64,000 nucleotides of DNA, from positions 9,285-73,284 of IMG/VR virus record IMGVR_UViG_3300036781_000179; one strand, given 5' to 3'. The translations under genes were made by a program, and so were the position numbers. Below, piece after piece: positions 3,886 through 51,011 of this stretch. The number at the start of each line of letters is the position of its first letter. Within the stretch, counting starts at the first letter, position 1. The notes under the pieces were generated by a model, which was not told where the DNA came from, did not search any database, and saw only the letters and a program-made list of their open reading frames with translations. This DNA comes from a virus.

Positions 3886-3893
3886 TATATTTG
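3886..3893 (+). promoter_or_regulatory. Bacteroidota-type -7 element (TATATTTG)
   Basis: Consensus match, TTG upstream, 4 nt before ATG 3898. Confidence 0.65.
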
Positions 3894-3897
3894 GATT

Positions 3898-4083
3898 ATG
3901 GAATCAAAACTAAAAGAAAGAATTTCAAATTGTAAAGTAAAAAAGAAGTTTATATCAGAAGTAATAGGAGTAAACCAATCTGTATTTAGTATGTGTATCA
4001 AAGGCGACCGCCATTTATCTCCTGAACAAGAAACTAAGTTAAAGAACTTTTTAGACAAGACAGAATCATTACAATTGGTTTAG
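3898..4083 (+). CDS. Cro-like helix-turn-helix regulator
   Basis: 61 aa, 'KKFISEVIGVNQSVFSMCIKGDR' XRE-type HTH. Confidence 0.7.
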   Translation: MESKLKERISNCKVKKKFISEVIGVNQSVFSMCIKGDRHLSPEQETKLKNFLDKTESLQLV

Positions 4084-17160: not shown

Positions 17161-17569
17161 ACCGGGATTTACAGGGTTAACAAAAGAGCAACTTAAATAC
17201 ATTGAGTATTTGGAAAGTTGCTTAAATGGGACTGCTGATTTAATATTAGAGTTGAATAACCTGAATAGTATATTGGCAGGTGAAATAAACATGATATGTC
17301 AAGGCAATGACACCATTGATGTTAAGGATGAAGAAAGCGGAGAAACTGTAAAGAAAAGCAAGTTAATACTGTTAAGCCCTGATAAGGATGATAAAACGTT
17401 TGACAAGATTATGAAAATCGTTGATAAATACGATAAATTCAAAGCCATAGGTATATCTCCCAAGGAAGAAATTGGACAGCGTAATAAATTAAAGTTTAAT
17501 ATTGGCGATAACCCATTTGAAAAAGTTATTGGTGATATTAAGTCACAAAAAAACGGAATTAAACATTAA
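17153..17569 (+). CDS. putative terminase small subunit
   Basis: Helical 138 aa protein coupled directly upstream of TerL. Confidence 0.5.
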   Translation: MNKPGFTGLTKEQLKYIEYLESCLNGTADLILELNNLNSILAGEINMICQGNDTIDVKDEESGETVKKSKLILLSPDKDDKTFDKIMKIVDKYDKFKAIGISPKEEIGQRNKLKFNIGDNPFEKVIGDIKSQKNGIKH

Positions 17570-19644
17570 TGGATATGGACTTTGAGGTAGGTAAACCAAT
17601 TAAAGTTCACATATATGAGGGACTATATTATACAACACCTCCTGTTCCAAAGCTTAATACCATAAGAGGGTACAAACTAAAAAAAGAAGACCAAGTCTAC
17701 CATAGGGATACCACCTACGAAAAATGGTCATGGAATGAGAACCCCAAAGATGGCACCGTTTGGTACATAGACCCCGAACCGGGGCAGTTAGAATGGTATT
17801 ATGCAGAGATAGATAGGATACTAAATGGAGCATGGATAATAATTGAGGGTAAACCAGTATTCTTAAACCTATTTGCTTATTTCTACCATCAGTGGTTTGT
17901 TTTAAAAGAGGGCGGTTATCCTGAATATCGTGACAGTTCATTAGAATTTTTTCGGTTCATAGAGATTGTATTCAATGACCCAAAATGCCGTGGTGCCAAT
18001 ATGATGAAAGGTAGGCGTAAAGGCGTTTCTACCATGTGCATGTCTATCATGCTCCAATTTGGGTTAATCAAGCAGAACACAGAGCAAGGCATAACCTCTA
18101 AATCAGCTATTGATGCTGAAAAGATTTTCAAGTTGATGCTTGTCAACGGATATAGTAGGCTACCAAGTTTCCTTAAACCAAGATTAAGTGGTACAGATAC
18201 CCCTGTCAAGACAATGCACATTACTAAACAGGCAGGCAGGATTACAAAAGAGGGTGGGACAGGCGCGAACAAAGAGGGCTTAAACAATAAGTTAGAATGG
18301 CGCGCACCGTCTTTAAACGTATTTGACGGAGATGGTTTGTGGGTATTATTATTAGATGAAGCCGCAAAATGGGAGGACGTAAATATTGATGAATACTTAG
18401 AAATAGCCCTAAATATCATAACCGCAGGAAAGCAAATAGGTCGTATCATCATAATAACTACTGTAAATAGAGGCGATAAAGGCGGTGACAATTATAAACC
18501 CGTATGGACAAACTCTGACCAAACAAAATTAAACGTATTAGGGCAGACAGAGAATAAACTATATCGTCACTTTATGCCCGGATACATGGGAGGAAGGGAT
18601 GGAGGATGGATTGATAAATATGGAAACTCAGTTTGGGACACCCCAACGCCTGAACAAACAGAATATCTTAAAAACGACCCTAATACCCTTGATCCGTATA
18701 TGGGGTGTAAAGAGTATTGTGAACTGCAACGAAAGTTAAAAGCTAAAGACCCTGAGAAACTACAGGAAGAAATACGAATGTTCCCTTTCAACCCGGAGGA
18801 AGTATTTAATGCTGCCAACAACAAGTGCCACTTTAGTAATCCTGATGAAATAAACAACCAAATAGAAAGGGTAGAAGCCAAATTAGAAGATGCCAGTCTT
18901 TACCGCAGGGGATGGTTTAAAAAGATGGACAATGGCGATATTGAGTTTAAGGATGACCCGGAAGGACTATGGTACATATTAGAATTGTTAGAACCAAATC
19001 AGGCAAATAAATGGATATGGAAAAATGGTCAAAAAACCCCTAATAACACGGAATATGGTGCAGGAGGGGTAGATACATTCTCCAATAGTGAATCAACAGC
19101 AGAAAAAGGCTCTGATGCCGCTATGTGCGTATTTAAACGATATAACCTGTTAGACCCTGAAAACTCAGGTATGCCAACAGCACTGTTTATAGGCAGGCCA
19201 AAGAATAAAAGGATATTTAACCAACAGATATTTTGGGGTGCTGAATATTATGGCATTAAAATGCTTATAGAACGTGCGCCTACAGATTGGTACGATTATG
19301 CCGAAAAGGAAAAGATATTAGGATATTGCCTTAAAACAAAACTCAAAATCAACGGACAAGAGGTTTATGGCTGTGCGCCACAAGATCAGGAAGCAAGAGA
19401 GCAGCACTTAACAGAAATGGTAGAATACATTGGCAATAATGTGGACAAGGTTTGGTTTTTAAGGATACTAAATGATTTGATACCATTTAATGTTAAGGAC
19501 AGAACAAAATATGATGGTGCAATGGCATTTGGATACTCCCTAATGGCATGTAAAGACAAGTATAGAAGTATTGTGCCACCAAGTAAAAAAGAAGCTATTA
19601 TAAAGACATTTAACCTGTTTAGTAAAAAACAAGCAAATTATTAA
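17569..19644 (+). CDS. terL: terminase large subunit
   Basis: 'KGRRKGVST' Walker A, 'LLLDEAAKW' Walker B, nuclease 'GVDTF..GSD' and 'YDGAMA'. Confidence 0.9.
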   Translation: MDMDFEVGKPIKVHIYEGLYYTTPPVPKLNTIRGYKLKKEDQVYHRDTTYEKWSWNENPKDGTVWYIDPEPGQLEWYYAEIDRILNGAWIIIEGKPVFLNLFAYFYHQWFVLKEGGYPEYRDSSLEFFRFIEIVFNDPKCRGANMMKGRRKGVSTMCMSIMLQFGLIKQNTEQGITSKSAIDAEKIFKLMLVNGYSRLPSFLKPRLSGTDTPVKTMHITKQAGRITKEGGTGANKEGLNNKLEWRAPSLNVFDGDGLWVLLLDEAAKWEDVNIDEYLEIALNIITAGKQIGRIIIITTVNRGDKGGDNYKPVWTNSDQTKLNVLGQTENKLYRHFMPGYMGGRDGGWIDKYGNSVWDTPTPEQTEYLKNDPNTLDPYMGCKEYCELQRKLKAKDPEKLQEEIRMFPFNPEEVFNAANNKCHFSNPDEINNQIERVEAKLEDASLYRRGWFKKMDNGDIEFKDDPEGLWYILELLEPNQANKWIWKNGQKTPNNTEYGAGGVDTFSNSESTAEKGSDAAMCVFKRYNLLDPENSGMPTALFIGRPKNKRIFNQQIFWGAEYYGIKMLIERAPTDWYDYAEKEKILGYCLKTKLKINGQEVYGCAPQDQEAREQHLTEMVEYIGNNVDKVWFLRILNDLIPFNVKDRTKYDGAMAFGYSLMACKDKYRSIVPPSKKEAIIKTFNLFSKKQANY

Positions 19645-47126: not shown

Positions 47127-47285
47127 ATGGTAAAGCAGCCCAAAAAGAAACAAGAGAAAAAATGTCACCCTGTAGAATCAGGAACAGACGGTGGTGTAGT
47201 GGTTAATACTGACCCGACACCGATAAACAAATGTCCTCGTGGATATTATTGGAACGGAACGAGATGTGTTGCAGACCTTGGATAA
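47127..47285 (+). CDS. 52-aa Cys-containing peptide (not in ORF track)
   Basis: Manual translation ends CPRGYYWNGTRCVADLG; stop 1 nt before ATG 47287. Confidence 0.65.
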   Translation: MVKQPKKKQEKKCHPVESGTDGGVVVNTDPTPINKCPRGYYWNGTRCVADLG

Positions 47286-47286
47286 A

Positions 47287-47661
47287 ATGAGAGCAGTAAT
47301 TTGTGCTATAGCCTTGATACTTTTTTGTGCATCAATGAATACCTACATATACAGGATTGACCATAATTGCTTGCCTATAAAAGAAATGAGGCTATGGTAC
47401 AATTATACATTAGGAGGATTTATCTTATTTTATATAATAGACGAACTATTTGGGTATAAGAATTACATACATGAAAATCTAAACTTAATATGTAAATTTA
47501 CGTCAGTTATAAACATTATATTAGTAATAATAAATCATCAAGATATTATGACGAACCCTTTAGAGAAGTTTTTATTATTCAATGGTGCAATTCTTGCGGT
47601 TACCATAATGATATTAATTTCAGGAGGGCGGCATGGTTATTTCCAAAACAATAATGACTAA
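47287..47661 (+). CDS. multi-pass membrane protein
   Basis: About four hydrophobic segments; ATG 47287 preferred over GTG 47239. Confidence 0.65.
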   Translation: MRAVICAIALILFCASMNTYIYRIDHNCLPIKEMRLWYNYTLGGFILFYIIDELFGYKNYIHENLNLICKFTSVINIILVIINHQDIMTNPLEKFLLFNGAILAVTIMILISGGRHGYFQNNND

Positions 47662-47944
47662 TAAACAAGGCGACTGGTATATTCAGATTTTAGAATGGTG
47701 TGTAGACCACGCCTTAGTTTGGACGACCTTTTTATTAGGGTTTACCGCGATAGATAAAACGTTTAAAGAAATTAGAAAACGTAGAGAAGCATCTGAAAAA
47801 TTAGAACTTGAAAGACATGATTTAAGGATGAGGCAAATCGTCCAAGAGGAAATAACTAAAGGTGTTTTAATGAGGCTTGATAAAATAGCTGAAAAGGTTG
47901 ATGATCTAAATGATGCTTTTATCAGGCATAACATCAAAAAATAA
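47633..47944 (+). CDS. putative holin/antiholin-like membrane protein
   Basis: One hydrophobic segment plus coiled coil, upstream of endolysin. Confidence 0.5.
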   Translation: MVISKTIMTNKQGDWYIQILEWCVDHALVWTTFLLGFTAIDKTFKEIRKRREASEKLELERHDLRMRQIVQEEITKGVLMRLDKIAEKVDDLNDAFIRHNIKK

Positions 47945-47947
47945 CCT

Positions 47948-48037
47948 ATGACTGAATTAGCACAGTACGGCATATTAGGAATAATCATAGGAGGACTGTT
48001 ATTATTATGGTCACTCCTATTAGCGGTTAAAGGATGA
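47948..48037 (+). CDS. 29-aa single-TM peptide (not in ORF track)
   Basis: MTELAQYGILGIIIGGLLLLWSLLLAVKG; ATGA overlap with endolysin. Confidence 0.55.
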   Translation: MTELAQYGILGIIIGGLLLLWSLLLAVKG

Positions 48038-48561
48038 ATGAGACTAATTTATTTAATGCATTACGAGGCATCACAAGTGATAAACGATTGTCACAAGTAC
48101 AAGTAGATAGCGTGAATGCTATTTTAGAGGCTTGTGTTAAATACCACGTTACAGAACAACGTCAAATAGCTTACATATTGGCAACGGCATTTCATGAAAG
48201 CAGATTAAAGCCAATTGAAGAAATAGGCCATGGTGCAGGCCATCCATACGGCAAGTTTATCAACGGGCATGTTTATTACGGTCGAGGCTTTGTCCAATTG
48301 ACATGGAAGGATAATTATGCAACATTTAGTAAAAGATTAAACATAGACCTTGTAAATAGGCCAGAACTGGCTTTAAACATTGAGTATGCCGCAGATATTT
48401 TGGTATTAGGTATGAGGGATGCTATGTTTACAGGAGTAGGATTATCTAAGTATCTATCAGAAACTAAAAATGATCCGTTAAATGCGAGGCGAATAGTAAA
48501 CGGGATTGACTGTGCAGCCTTAATAAGAGGATATTATCAACATATTTTAAGTTCATTATAA
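48034..48561 (+). CDS. endolysin, glycoside hydrolase family 19
   Basis: 'AYILATAFHES', 'YYGRGFVQLTWKDNY', 'ARRIVNG'. Confidence 0.9.
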   Translation: MNETNLFNALRGITSDKRLSQVQVDSVNAILEACVKYHVTEQRQIAYILATAFHESRLKPIEEIGHGAGHPYGKFINGHVYYGRGFVQLTWKDNYATFSKRLNIDLVNRPELALNIEYAADILVLGMRDAMFTGVGLSKYLSETKNDPLNARRIVNGIDCAALIRGYYQHILSSL

Positions 48562-48824
48562 TGGAAGATCACAAAGAGATTATTAAACTTTATTTTGCAT
48601 CAGGCGTGTGTTTATGCGGATTAATACTGTTATCACTTTTGGTATGGTTACCTGTACCTCACGAGAATCAGCCTATGGCAAATTTAGCAATGGGTGCTGT
48701 TATAACATCAATCATTGGTGTACCTATTGCATTTGTGTTAGGAGGTAATCCAACAAAAAAACCGGGAGAGAACCCAACTGTTAACAATGCAGACACAGTT
48801 AATGTGAACCAAAAACCTGAATGA
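48561..48824 (+). CDS. putative holin (2 TM)
   Basis: Two TM helices directly after endolysin. Confidence 0.6.
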   Translation: MEDHKEIIKLYFASGVCLCGLILLSLLVWLPVPHENQPMANLAMGAVITSIIGVPIAFVLGGNPTKKPGENPTVNNADTVNVNQKPE

Positions 48825-49003
48825 TTGCTTTAGCCTTTATCATAGGTCTTATCATGGGACACGTTACTAAAGCCCATTTATACAGGTTTGTAGTGGATAA
48901 GTTCATTGAGCAAAGGAAACGCAGGGAACAGGAATTTGAGTGCCTTATAGGGGCTAAAAACGAGGTTATAAAGGAATTAGAAAAAAATAAAATTGCAGAT
49001 TAA
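48821..49003 (+). CDS. small membrane-anchored protein
   Basis: N-terminal TM; ATGA overlap. Confidence 0.5.
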   Translation: MIALAFIIGLIMGHVTKAHLYRFVVDKFIEQRKRREQEFECLIGAKNEVIKELEKNKIAD

Positions 49004-49014
49004 AATAATTTACG

Positions 49015-49022
49015 TATCATTG
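49015..49022 (+). promoter_or_regulatory. putative -7 promoter element (TATCATTG) of tRNA operon leader
   Basis: One mismatch to TAnnTTTG; TTG at 48993; same 4-nt spacing to ATG as at 690, 3886 and 49205. Confidence 0.55.
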
Positions 49023-49026
49023 TACT

Positions 49027-49083
49027 ATGATTAAAACAACAACATATAGTAATTCGGATTGGTCTTTGACCGATGCAGGATAA
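49027..49083 (+). CDS. attenuator leader peptide MIKTTTYSNSDWSLTDAG
   Basis: 18-codon ORF whose codons 4-13 match the anticodons of the downstream tRNA cluster. Confidence 0.75.
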   Translation: MIKTTTYSNSDWSLTDAG

Positions 49084-49102
49084 CTATATGTTAAAATACA
49101 TA

Positions 49103-49141
49103 AGAAAACCCTGCATAGAAATATGTGGGGTTTTCTGTTTT
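49103..49141 (+). terminator. attenuator terminator hairpin
   Basis: 15-bp stem 49103-49117/49122-49136 with GAAA loop and T-rich tail. Confidence 0.85.
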
Positions 49142-49216
49142 AAATACGTCTACTCAAAGGAGCGATAAGCAGTCTCCAATATTATTTATTTGGAGACTAA
49201 TTTGTATATTTGCTGA

Positions 49217-49633
49217 ATGAAATGCACAAAATGTTTAGAAGAAAAATCAGAATTTGATTTCGTATTTAAAAATAAAGTAGCTAATAAAAGACACACAGTA
49301 TGCGGCGTTTGTCAAAGGGAATATAAAAAGAAACATTATTATGAAAATAAACCAGCACATTATGCGCGAAATATTAAAACAAGGATAGAAATAAAAAAAA
49401 TTTATGACGAAGTTAAGGATAACGCTGTATGTATAATTTGTGGTGAAAACGAAAGGTGTTGTATAGATTTTCACCATTTAGACCCAAGTAAAAAAGAGTT
49501 TAATGTGGGTAGGTTAACAACTTATGGATCAAAAATTAAACTTATTAACGAGTTTGAAAAATGTGTACCTCTTTGTGCTAATTGCCATAGAAAACTACAT
49601 GCAGGAGTAATAGAATTAAATATCGGTGTGTAA
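49217..49633 (+). CDS. HNH endonuclease at head of tRNA cluster
   Basis: CTKC/CGVC; 'CIICGE..IDFHHLDP..KCVPLCANCHRKLH'. Confidence 0.85.
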   Translation: MKCTKCLEEKSEFDFVFKNKVANKRHTVCGVCQREYKKKHYYENKPAHYARNIKTRIEIKKIYDEVKDNAVCIICGENERCCIDFHHLDPSKKEFNVGRLTTYGSKIKLINEFEKCVPLCANCHRKLHAGVIELNIGV

Positions 49634-49708
49634 TCAAGTGGTCGAAGATATTGGTCTCCAAAACCAACGGTTTAAAAACCCTCGACAGTTCGAATCTGTC
49701 CACATCTG
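49624..49708 (+). tRNA. tRNA with CCA (Trp) anticodon and long variable arm
   Basis: TTGGT-CTCCAAA-ACCAA arm; GACAG-TTCGAAT-CTGTC T-arm; 1:72 mismatch. Confidence 0.75.
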
Positions 49709-49713
49709 CAAAA

Positions 49714-49785
49714 GGGTAAGTAGCACAGAGGTAGTGCAAATGACTGTTAATCATTAGGTCACAGGTTCGAATCCTTTCTTGCCCT
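49714..49785 (+). tRNA. tRNA-Asn(GTT)
   Basis: GGGTAAG/CTTGCCC acceptor; AATGA-CTGTTAA-TCATT. Confidence 0.85.
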
Positions 49786-49789
49786 CATT

Positions 49790-49862
49790 GCATCCTTAGT
49801 TCAATTGGTAGAACGGCTGCCTTGTAAGCAGTTGGTTGGCGGTTCGATTCCGTCAGGATGCT
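49790..49862 (+). tRNA. tRNA-Thr(TGT)
   Basis: GCATCCT/AGGATGC acceptor; GCTGC-CTTGTAA-GCAGT. Confidence 0.9.
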
Positions 49863-49866
49863 CAAA

Positions 49867-49939
49867 CGTTTCGGCGCATAACGGCTGTTGCGCCTCACTG
49901 TCTATGAGGATTTAGAGGGTTCGACTCCCTTCGGGACGA
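49867..49939 (+). tRNA. tRNA-Asp(GTC)
   Basis: CGTTTCG/CGGGACG acceptor; CCTCA-CTGTCTA-TGAGG. Confidence 0.8.
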
Positions 49940-49944
49940 CAAAT

Positions 49945-50027
49945 AGTAGATTAGCCAAGCGGTACGGCAACTCACTGCTAATGAGTAACACTTTCGGGTG
50001 TCGTTGGTTCGAATCCAACATCTACTA
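49945..50027 (+). tRNA. tRNA-Ser(GCT)
   Basis: AGTAGAT/ATCTACT acceptor; ACTCA-CTGCTAA-TGAGT; long variable arm. Confidence 0.88.
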
Positions 50028-50033
50028 CTTAAT

Positions 50034-50120
50034 AGAGGTTCGTATGGTTGGCGTACTTATCTGTCTTGAAAACAGTGATGGGTTTAAAAGCCCGTGCAGG
50101 TTCGATCCCTGTAGCCTCTT
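50034..50120 (+). tRNA. tRNA-Ser(TGA)
   Basis: AGAGGTT/AGCCTCT acceptor; CTGT-CTTGAAA-ACAG; long variable arm. Confidence 0.8.
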
Positions 50121-50126
50121 CTTAAT

Positions 50127-50210
50127 CCTTTAGCGACAACGTGGGAGTGTTGTGACTGTCTGTAAAACAGTTGGTGTAAACCTTAGTAAGTTCGAATCTT
50201 ACCTATTGGA
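50127..50210 (+). tRNA. tRNA-Tyr(GTA)
   Basis: ACTGT-CTGTAAA-ACAGT; GTAAG-TTCGAAT-CTTAC; imperfect acceptor stem. Confidence 0.75.
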
Positions 50211-50221
50211 CATTCAATTAG

Positions 50222-50260
50222 AAAGCCGACACTGAATTGTACAGATGTCGGCTCATTTTC
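50222..50260. terminator. terminator at convergence of the two transcription arms
   Basis: AGCCGACA/TGTCGGCT stem. Confidence 0.7.
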
Positions 50261-50285
50261 TGAAATATGCTGTGTTAGCCACTCA

Positions 50286-50849
50286 TTAAACTTTAGGTTT
50301 TTTACTTCTCAAATAAATAACAACCACAATCAACACTACAAACACTAATATTGATATACCTATCCACTTGGCATAAGTTGTACCACTGCCTATTGCTGAT
50401 GAGTTCTTGGTTTTCCCGGTACTATCCTTTTTAACTGTGGTATTGGAATCAGTTTTAGTTGTCAATACTCCTGTAGTAAAGGTAGTAACCCCTGATTGTC
50501 TACTTACGTTGCCATTGGTCTTAACGTTACTTGAATCCGAAACCTGATAATGGATTACCTTTCCTTTAGTAGGATATATAACAGTTTTAGTTCCCTGTGA
50601 GTTCTTGGTTTGAACAATACTATCCACTTCTAACGTAGCATCCCTTGACGACCCTGTTTTAGCCTCTGTGGTTGATGATTTTGTTGATTTGGATGTATCT
50701 ACCGATTGCGTGTGTAAACTGTCTGTAGTGGTCTTATTTACAGCCACAGTTGATGACTGTGATACACTTGATGTTTGGGTTGCTACCTTACGTGTCTTGC
50801 AAGCGCAAAACAGGGTGAGTATGGTACATAATGAGATAAAAGTTTTCAT
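50286..50849 (-). CDS. putative unimolecular spanin (lipoprotein with C-terminal TM)
   Basis: Lipobox-like 'LFCAC', Thr/Ser-rich body, C-terminal TM helix and basic tail. Confidence 0.65.
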   Translation of the reverse strand: MKTFISLCTILTLFCACKTRKVATQTSSVSQSSTVAVNKTTTDSLHTQSVDTSKSTKSSTTEAKTGSSRDATLEVDSIVQTKNSQGTKTVIYPTKGKVIHYQVSDSSNVKTNGNVSRQSGVTTFTTGVLTTKTDSNTTVKKDSTGKTKNSSAIGSGTTYAKWIGISILVFVVLIVVVIYLRSKKPKV

Positions 50850-51011
50850 GTTTTTTATATAAAGTTAGTTATTTACTTTCATGTTCAATCCATTCAGAAA
50901 TTTGTAGCAATAAATTAATGATGTAGTCAAGGCAGCAATGAACAATAACCATCACTGCTGAAACAGTTACTAATGCGGTAACAGTTATAACAAGGTGTAG
51001 GATTAGGTCAT

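Follow-up and report, generated by a model that had tools for sequence, protein, structure and literature searches.

A candidate leader-peptide attenuator ahead of a mobile tRNA cassette in a phage of probable Bacteroidota host

How does a phage time the synthesis of the tRNAs that it carries? Phage tRNAs are discussed as compensating for codon usage and as replacing tRNAs that host defenses have cut, and leader-peptide attenuation is the textbook control of amino acid operons. The two subjects may meet in IMG/VR virus record IMGVR_UViG_3300036781_000179 (73,284 bases, rated complete by CheckV), of which bases 9285 to 73284, a stretch of 64,000 nucleotides here called the window, were analyzed. 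In the window, a short open reading frame (ORF) and two hairpins precede an HNH endonuclease gene and seven tRNA genes (Table 1). We consider it likely, from sequence and from modeled folds, that positions 49027 to 49141 constitute a leader-peptide (ribosome-mediated) transcription attenuator that heads a 1241-bp tRNA cassette. This reading is supported by the rarity of the codon match, the geometry of the helices, co-variation in a homolog, a second unit on the contig of that homolog, and cases in unrelated phages. The phage, of about 73 kb and probably with a host among the Bacteroidota, would then probably make its seven tRNAs whenever one of them is in short supply for the ribosomes.

Leader codons and the predicted switch

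The leader ORF of the original prediction, which had been made from the sequence alone, was recovered with the same coordinates and codons, and all seven tRNAs placed downstream of it were found with ARAGORN and Rfam. Default ARAGORN reported six of them and missed the seventh, Asp-GTC. No other tRNA match was obtained in the full 73,284-base record. Codons 6 to 12 of the leader (ACA, TAT, AGT, AAT, TCG, GAT, and TGG) match the seven tRNAs one to one under standard wobble. The correspondence had been claimed for codons 4 to 13; it stands for codons 4 to 12, but not for codon 13, TCT, which is not read by the anticodon TGA under strict wobble. The leader codons ATT, AAA, TTG, ACC, GCA, and GGA have no matching tRNA.

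Such a match is rare in this sequence. In the six frames of the window, all seven tRNA sets are covered by a single one of 82,134 stop-free stretches of 7 codons, which is the leader's own; by 4 of 69,630 stretches of 10 codons, every one of which overlaps the leader; and by 23 of 49,970 stretches of 17 codons. Calculated from codon usage in 43 long ORFs of the phage, the per-position probability of a seven-set match is 2.8e-7, and the leader is the sole one among 195 ATG ORFs of 15 to 21 codons to cover more than five of the seven sets. The locus has the parts by which an attenuator of this class is recognized, namely, an upstream ORF on the same strand, sensing codons matched to the product, and a terminator between the ORF and the tRNA genes.

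Folding confirmed the protector hairpin, the antiterminator, and the 15-bp terminator that had been proposed. The minimum-free-energy (MFE) fold of 49015 to 49150 consists of the hairpin at 49041 to 49092 and the terminator, with -47.7 kcal/mol and a z score of -7.8, and none of 200 shuffled sequences folded as well. In the first hairpin (helix 1:2), the sensing codons form the 5' arm and the stop codon lies within the 3' arm. The antiterminator (helix 2:3) pairs ATGCAGG with CCTGCAT and TATGT with ACATA, and the terminator (helix 3:4) was the top match of a terminator scan.

The nascent RNA was then folded up to the terminator loop with the footprint of a ribosome masked at each A-site codon, the size of the footprint being an assumption of the simulation. 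With the A site on any of codons 2 to 12, the antiterminator forms (-18.0 to -11.0 kcal/mol in total) and occupies 5 to 7 of the 15 bases that make up the 5' arm of the terminator. At codon 13, 4 of the 15 are held, and from codon 14 to the stop codon, none. This constrained fold, a check named in the original prediction, yielded in silico a switch of the trp type between codons 12 and 13 to 14. In these models the three helices appear mutually exclusive, with the choice among them set by the position of the ribosome. The matched codons 4 to 12 fill the simulated stall zone, and the unmatched TTG, ACC, GCA, and GGA lie behind it; in all, 9 of 11 codons are matched in the zone versus 1 of 6 behind it.

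In the mechanism that we propose, RNA polymerase would transcribe the 18-codon leader, and a brisk ribosome reaching the stop codon would cover segment 2 (49073 to 49092), so that the terminator would form and transcription would end before the tRNA genes. A ribosome stalled on any of codons 4 to 12 would open hairpin 1:2 and leave segment 2 free. Free segment 2 would pair with the terminator's 5' arm (49098 to 49116), and the polymerase would continue into the tRNA genes. With no ribosome on the leader, helices 1:2 and 3:4 would both form and transcription would stop. Such a locus would act as an OR gate of many inputs, with negative feedback: if any one of the seven codon families were decoded slowly, synthesis of the whole tRNA set would rise. 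We infer from the sequence that the leader is translated, that ribosome and polymerase are coupled, and that the locus responds to tRNA supply; that its purpose is to counter host tRNA nucleases is a conjecture.

Homologs and leaders ahead of other tRNA arrays

A homolog of the leader was found, by means of a gapped pattern of three blocks, on L095, a metagenome contig of 1,674 bases whose end truncates the first leader codons. This leader (unit 1) is 88 to 92% identical to the window (88% over 102 bases), the terminator core is identical in the two, and the leader hairpin is retained. Over the visible part, the frame and the position of the stop codon are kept, TAA having become TAG (peptide ...KSYSNFDWSQTDAG). 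The change of ACATA to ATATA keeps an antiterminator pair as G-U. Relaxed ARAGORN found 12 visible tRNAs on the contig, in the order Lys-TTT, Trp-CCA, Phe-GAA, and Asn-GTT, an HNH ORF, Asp-GTC, Ser-GCT, Ser-TGA, and Tyr-GTA, a short ORF with a terminator, and then Pro-TGG, Gln-TTG, Glu-TTC, and His-GTG. The T-run of the first terminator directly abuts tRNA-Lys; because there is no room for a promoter between the terminator and the first tRNA, the L095 tRNAs should need read-through.

Co-variation of leader codons with anticodons had been named as the test on which the original prediction could fail. In L095 the prediction passed this test: the codons differ from those of the window where the tRNA set differs. 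Four codon changes from the window to L095 are nonsynonymous, and all four give codons read by L095 tRNAs: ACA to AAA (read by Lys-TTT), TCG to TTT (read by Phe-GAA), and TTG to CAG (read by Gln-TTG), these three tRNAs being absent from the window, and ACA to TCA (read by Ser-TGA). A further change, TCT to TCG, is synonymous and leaves the amino acid as it was. The Thr codons are lost from the L095 leader, and tRNA-Thr is not among its 12 visible tRNAs. Every visible codon of unit 1 within the zone is matched (8/8). A third copy of the leader, known by alignment only, is present on a 246-base X5 contig that aligns to 49046 to 49145 with 7 other letters and 6 gap letters.

L095 also carries a second leader (unit 2) between tRNA-Tyr and tRNA-Pro. 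Its ORF is followed by a 10-pair hairpin with a seven-T run and then by tRNA-Pro, -Gln, -Glu, and -His, and its codons His-Gln-Gln-Glu-Pro name exactly the four tRNAs behind it; the codons before these, for Lys, Phe, and Asn, correspond to tRNAs from the first block. Stretches of 5 codons that cover these four amino acids number 23 among 92,495 in the six frames of the window, or 15 with strict wobble. In ribosome-mask folds, unit 2 switches between codons 12 and 13, as in the window. When the window leader and both L095 leaders are pooled, 25 of 30 codons in the zone are matched versus 6 of 23 behind it (Fisher p = 3.3e-5), and without the homologous unit 1 the counts are 17 of 22 versus 3 of 17 (p = 2.7e-4). 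Upstream of unit 2 stands TATAATTG with 4 nt and ATG, and TTTG lies 19 nt further up.

A search upstream of the tRNA arrays of other phages for a short ORF followed by a terminator, likewise suggested by the original prediction, brought further matched cases in IMG/VR (L153, L196, L122, and L178) (Table 1). The survey scanned for a generic two-tRNA junction and took in at least 120 loci. Of 457 same-strand tRNA blocks, split at gaps of more than 60 nt, 205 held at least two tRNAs and 191 had at least 70 bases upstream; 11 passed a strict, arbitrary rule (an ATG ORF of 8 to 45 codons and a stem of at least 6 pairs with a T-run at most 70 nt from the block), so that the counts cover just 11 of 191 eligible blocks. 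In the 16 ORFs before these 11 blocks, 64 of 359 codons are read by the block tRNAs in frame versus 70 of 718 in the shifted frames (p = 1.5e-4), and every block tRNA is covered by 8 of 16 ORFs in frame versus 5 of 32 in the shifted frames. Ribosome-mask folds were made of seven leaders, and a clean switch was obtained for the window leader, L196, and both L178 leaders, with the matched codons just before the switch. Several of the surveyed leaders end, like that of the window, with GGA TAA, and two begin with M-(K/R)-T-T.

Searches with narrower patterns returned little beyond L095. The leader/terminator pattern had no match in IMG/VR; its 9 matches in metagenome contigs comprised 8 GC-rich chance matches and the real one, L095, and its 4 matches in genome contigs were all due to chance. 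Patterns of tRNA-Asp and tRNA-Tyr common to L095 and the window had no match in IMG/VR. Among GenBank phages, 49020 to 49150 had no match at E <= 1, and larger queries matched tRNA and HNH pieces alone. Loci of Lak phages and crAss-like phages (L100 to L103) were left out of the counts; the Lak tRNAs are scattered. One of these loci (L103 4973 to 5014; uncultured phage cr111_1, MT774387.1) has a short ORF, MVKTIREGQSVEG, after a TACCTTTG box and before tRNA-Gln, -Arg, -Glu, and -Glu. Its AGA, GAA, CAA, and GAG codons fit the four tRNAs, but the hairpin has no T-run and the array holds 24 tRNAs, which makes the match uninformative.

Insertion, boundaries, and competing explanations

Between the terminator and the intact tRNAs of the window lies the HNH gene. 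It had been proposed to be an insertion, and this was borne out: the window keeps a split tRNA-Trp at 49141 to 49179, and the tRNA-Trp of L095 is whole (relaxed ARAGORN; Rfam, 25.2 bits). The remnant together with the inverted repeat at the joint (49141 to 49199) looks like the scar of homing into a tRNA gene. The HNH gene of L095 is placed differently, between the Asn and Asp tRNAs. From the tRNA-Trp remnant and the L095 arrangement, the ancestral layout would be leader, terminator, and then tRNAs. The window is without the tRNA-Lys that follows the terminator in L095, yet codon 3 of its leader is still AAA, unmatched. In its 3' part (window 49429 to 49621), the HNH gene, like the L095 HNH ORF, has about 72% DNA identity to stretches of Prevotella Lak megaphages, which suggests a homing endonuclease family shared among Bacteroidota phages. 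The intact tRNA-Trp (CCA), of 86 nt, has a long extra arm that is unusual for tRNA-Trp; tRNA-Trp (CCA) calls of 92 nt were obtained in the Lak phage loci L100 and L101.

The insertion suggests the best surviving of the competing explanations, which we nonetheless regard as unlikely. An ancestral attenuator of the L095 kind would have become a relic when the HNH insertion brought a promoter, TATATTTG; tRNA synthesis would now go along with that of the HNH mRNA, leaving the leader merely to insulate the cassette from upstream transcription. The position of the HNH gene inside a former tRNA-Trp fits this explanation, as does the 10-base overlap of the first intact tRNA, tRNA-Trp, with the HNH stop codon. 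So does the arrangement of TATATTTG, 4 nt, and ATG at 49205 to 49219, for which the -7 box position given in a passage of PMC9723704 puts the start at the ATG, and the caveat of the original prediction that this box could bypass the switch stands for the window phage. However, the match of the leader to the present tRNA set is still exact and extends to Thr, a tRNA absent in L095, and the frame, start, and stems of the leader are without decay. For the promoter motif TANNTTTG-N4-ATG, the count does not exceed chance (4 versus 1.85 expected; 11 of 100 shuffles reach 4), and read-through transcripts would still add tRNA output.

The boundaries of the cassette bear on a second and decidedly improbable explanation, in which an ordinary operon-end or insulating terminator stands beside a chance ORF, the hairpins end or stabilize the transcript of the late genes (tail and lysis), and the codons match by coincidence. 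The site does lie 24 bases past the last late gene, where plus- and minus-strand genes converge; tandem hairpins are common at operon ends, and the leader was selected from a very large scan. Logan contigs of four sequencing runs were aligned on window 47200 to 51000; none of the runs listed for the sequence was an RNA run. A 7,288-base X4 contig and a 236-base X5 contig join 48974 to 50216 and skip 1241 bases, with 9 letters fitting both sides. These relatives are without window 48975 to 50215 and so have neither the leader with its two hairpins nor the HNH gene nor any of the seven tRNAs. To judge from these alignments, leader, terminator, HNH gene, and tRNAs are one 1241-bp cassette that is gained or lost as a unit, and its presence and absence among relatives and the endonuclease gene inside it are those of a homing-endonuclease-associated mobile tRNA cassette. 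Its left edge lies 43 to 52 bases before the leader ATG. In the X4 and X5 contigs the last late gene runs straight into the hairpin at 50225 and would end a few codons later, inside it, and this hairpin would terminate the late operon in the cassette-less relatives and the tRNA transcript in the window phage. Because the cassette-less relatives end the late operon at 50225, the terminator at 49103 should belong to the tRNA cassette instead. Further, the codon match is unique in the window; in L095 the frame and stop are kept and the codon changes go with its tRNAs, and the contig carries a second matched unit; and the L095 tRNAs start right after the T-run.

A third explanation, which does without any sensing of decoding speed, is very improbable: the short ORF would encode a functional peptide, or the hairpins would help to process or stabilize the tRNA precursor. 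The hairpin at 49041 to 49092 is far more stable than chance and tRNA precursors require 5' processing, but at 88% DNA identity the L095 peptide differs in 4 of its 14 visible residues, each change leading to a tRNA-matched codon, the peptide of L095 unit 2 is unrelated, and a processing signal leaves the frame-specific match of the survey unexplained.

Several observations weigh against the attenuator itself. The leader was selected from a scan of very many windows; ATT and AAA inside the stall zone of the window are unmatched, and strict wobble does not allow Pro-TGG to read the CCC codon of unit 2. With 7 plus 5 pairs the antiterminator is modest, and by a rough estimate the chance of a 7-base complement to the terminator arm within 60 nt upstream is a few per cent. 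That of unit 2 holds just 4 of 10 arm bases; in the folds of the seven leaders, unit 2 has a weak switch and L153 and L122 have no clear one. The four L095 codon changes taken alone have a chance of about 0.06 at the L095 background match rate of 0.49. Stem changes in L095 are one-sided (A-U to G-U and G-C to G-U) or break outer pairs, and the two sequences, window and L095, have no compensatory double change between them, so that covariation gives the helices no support. Some 480 bases (the tRNA remnant and the HNH gene with its -7-like box) lie between the terminator and the first intact tRNA of the window, and the window tRNAs may be made from a start at about 49217 that bypasses the switch. 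With Rfam, the locus scores 28.3 bits for Thr_leader (RF00506) against a cutoff of 55 and 31.5 bits for the trpB motif (RF04312) against a cutoff of 59, the resemblance to both being one of architecture alone.

If the attenuator is accepted, a wider reading of the cassette can be entertained, though we think it rather doubtful. The 1241-bp unit would be a self-contained mobile tRNA-supply module with its own promoter (and a leaderless leader mRNA), sensor ORF, attenuator, tRNAs, and homing endonuclease. It would move among Bacteroidota phages with its leader rewritten for each tRNA set, and its OR gate would detect the loss of any tRNA species, for example to host anticodon nucleases, and make replacements. 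Should this be true, phage counter-defense and tRNA homeostasis would have in such modules a general layer that has so far gone undescribed. The candidate for the promoter is the promoter-like stretch before the leader. A Flavobacterium sigma-A box TAnnTTTG is placed at -12 to -5 in a passage of PMC9723704, and by this box position the layout of the stretch would put the RNA start at the leader ATG; if used, it might give a leaderless leader mRNA, a weak suggestion drawn from layout. TANNWTTG-N4-ATG has 8 matches versus 4.04 expected, with at least 8 in 3 of 100 shuffles, which is mildly above chance. TAnnTTTG with 4 nt and ATG also occurs at 690 to 704, before the first plus-strand ORF (702 to 1193), and at 3886 to 3900; both are possible leaderless starts, by a motif whose count is not above chance.

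The cassette sits at a convergence point (49003 to 50286), with the long plus-strand gene run on its left and, from 50286 onward, genes on the minus strand. The named homologs of the endolysin are from Mucilaginibacter and a Sphingobacteriales metagenome-assembled genome; such hints, which are not proof, point to a Bacteroidota host. The closest endolysin homologs are P0002 (89%, on a 39-kb contig) and P0005 (73%, on a 75.8-kb contig). A single-protein IMG/VR scan with the endolysin found no relative, and an alignment scan gave 80 loci, all of at most 60% identity; in the first 60 of the 80, ARAGORN found no tRNA array after the lysis genes, with 3 tRNAs in 2 loci, and five whole records of the scan's loci held a single tRNA in one. 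Of the two relatives by large terminase, G006 (72%) has no tRNA and G007 (61%) has one, and neither matches the endolysin or window 48800 to 50300. The one tRNA match of G007 (C1:54063-54249) spans 187 bases against a 71-position model and may be a gene with an insertion or intron.

Table 1. Positions of the leader, helices, tRNA cassette, and neighboring genes in the window, and of leaders at other loci
Feature	Position	Strand	Remarks
Leader ORF	ATG 49027 to TAA 49081-49083	+	18 sense codons and TAA; reads MIKTTTYSNSDWSLTDAG
Sensing codons 4-12 (Thr x3, Tyr, Ser, Asn, Ser, Asp, Trp)	49036-49062	+	All 9 read by array tRNAs
Helix 1:2 (protector hairpin)	49041-49092	+	-22.1 kcal/mol alone; part of MFE fold
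Helix 2:3 (antiterminator)	49073-49079 with 49110-49116; 49087-49091 with 49098-49102	+	-12.2 kcal/mol alone
Helix 3:4 (intrinsic terminator and T-run)	49103-49141	+	15 pairs, 49103-49136; -19.9 kcal/mol
Promoter-like stretch	48992-49022	+	ATTG, 19 nt, TATCATTG, 4 nt, then ATG
Direct repeat, left copy (9 bp)	48975-48983	+	AATTAGAAA; identical to 50216-50224
Direct repeat, right copy (9 bp)	50216-50224	+	AATTAGAAA
tRNA-Trp remnant	49141-49181	+	5' half to anticodon CCA; 49141-49179 88% identical to 5' half of L095 tRNA-Trp
Inverted repeat (9 bp) at insertion joint	49172-49199	+	AGTCTCCAA / TTGGAGACT; -12.5 kcal/mol
-7-like box	49205-49212	+	TATATTTG, then 4 nt, ATG
HNH endonuclease gene	49217-49633	+	phrog_2255, E = 2e-29
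tRNA Trp-CCA	49624-49709	+	Default ARAGORN
tRNA Asn-GTT	49714-49786	+	Default ARAGORN
tRNA Thr-TGT	49790-49863	+	Default ARAGORN
tRNA Asp-GTC	49867-49939	+	Rfam 38.1 bits and relaxed ARAGORN
tRNA Ser-GCT	49945-50028	+	Default ARAGORN
tRNA Ser-TGA	50034-50121	+	Default ARAGORN
tRNA Tyr-GTA	50127-50211	+	Default ARAGORN
Hairpin and T-run	50225-50261		GCCGACACTG...CAGATGTCGGC; stem 50225-50252; -19.0 kcal/mol
Plus-strand gene run	702 to 49003	+	Includes primase/helicase, portal, tail fibers
Large terminase	17569-19644	+	
GH19-type endolysin	48034-48561	+	Followed by two small ORFs, the last ending at 49003
Last late gene	48821-49003	+	24 bases before leader ORF
L095 second leader (unit 2)	L095 459-337	-	23-codon ORF MKFNNLHQQEPRYLTIGRKGIAM, beginning MKFNNLHQQEPR...; between tRNA-Tyr and tRNA-Pro
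L153 leader	3634	-	7/7 tRNAs within 12 codons; background 1/6,897 in locus
L196 leader	10137	+	Homolog of L153
L122 leader	3035	+	Thr-Ser-Ser-Thr-Cys-Glu-Ser-Ser before Ser, Ser, Thr, Cys; 4/4 within 8 codons; background 14/18,487
L178 first leader	1258	+	Leu/Arg leader, 9/21 codons matched, before Leu and Arg tRNAs
L178 second leader	3655	+	33 codons with all 13 isotypes of the tRNAs behind it

Significance and relation to known systems

A sensor of decoding speed that works codon by codon would make the question of how phages time tRNA synthesis directly testable. The system spans 120 bases, and its start codon, each of its sensing codons, and its three helices each give a distinct prediction. 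The one-to-one layout, the codon changes of L095, and the gain and loss of the unit make it a compact model case, and reporters of the supply of a chosen tRNA could be modeled on this natural design.

A literature search found no paper on the attenuation of tRNA genes, in line with the earlier statement that no described attenuator of a phage tRNA array was known to its author. Within the Bacteroidota, passages of two papers describe likely leader-peptide attenuation upstream of Flavobacterium amino acid operons (PMC9723704) and Bacteroides short ORFs reminiscent of leader peptides (PMC7366714). The nearest published system is that of Anabaena PCC 7120, whose inducible long tRNA operon (trn) is ascribed to control by a protein repressor, TrcR (PMC8421152 and PMC10272220). 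As is proposed for the window cassette, this accessory tRNA array is kept low and switched on when translation is impaired, and homing endonuclease genes lie beside such arrays. Neither text contains the words attenuat-, leader, or terminator. The T4 homing endonuclease SegB (Brok-Volchanskaya 2008, as cited in PMC8421152) is, in the citing passage, likewise encoded among phage tRNA genes; it cuts within them and carries the neighboring array along. In contrast to the window element, SegB concerns spread, not the control of expression, and no leader ORF is described in that passage.

Among the 11 Rfam matches at E <= 1 in 48000 to 51000, there was no T-box, and a match to greA was below threshold. 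The T-box binds uncharged tRNA directly via a specifier codon, with neither ribosome nor ORF; it resembles the switch proposed for the window in that a choice between terminator and antiterminator in the leader is set by the state of a specific tRNA. In the pheST attenuator of Escherichia coli phenylalanyl-tRNA synthetase (pheM leader), a component of the translation apparatus is controlled by leader-peptide attenuation according to the supply of charged tRNA, as we propose for the window; unlike the window element, it senses one amino acid and regulates a cellular protein gene rather than tRNA.

A similar architecture is that of the multivalent leader attenuators of enterobacterial amino acid operons, including the thr leader (Thr and Ile codons) and the ilvGMEDA leader (Ile, Leu, and Val), for which trpL is the model. 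With these the window element shares a 5' short ORF, sensing codons in the 5' arm of the first hairpin, predicted exclusive helices 1:2, 2:3, and 3:4, an intrinsic terminator, and the proposed sensing of more than one amino acid. It differs from them in that it would regulate tRNA genes rather than biosynthetic enzymes, so that its output would feed back on the molecule that is sensed; in that its leader gives each tRNA species one codon, with seven kinds following one another, versus runs of one or two kinds; and in that it is phage borne, on a mobile cassette.

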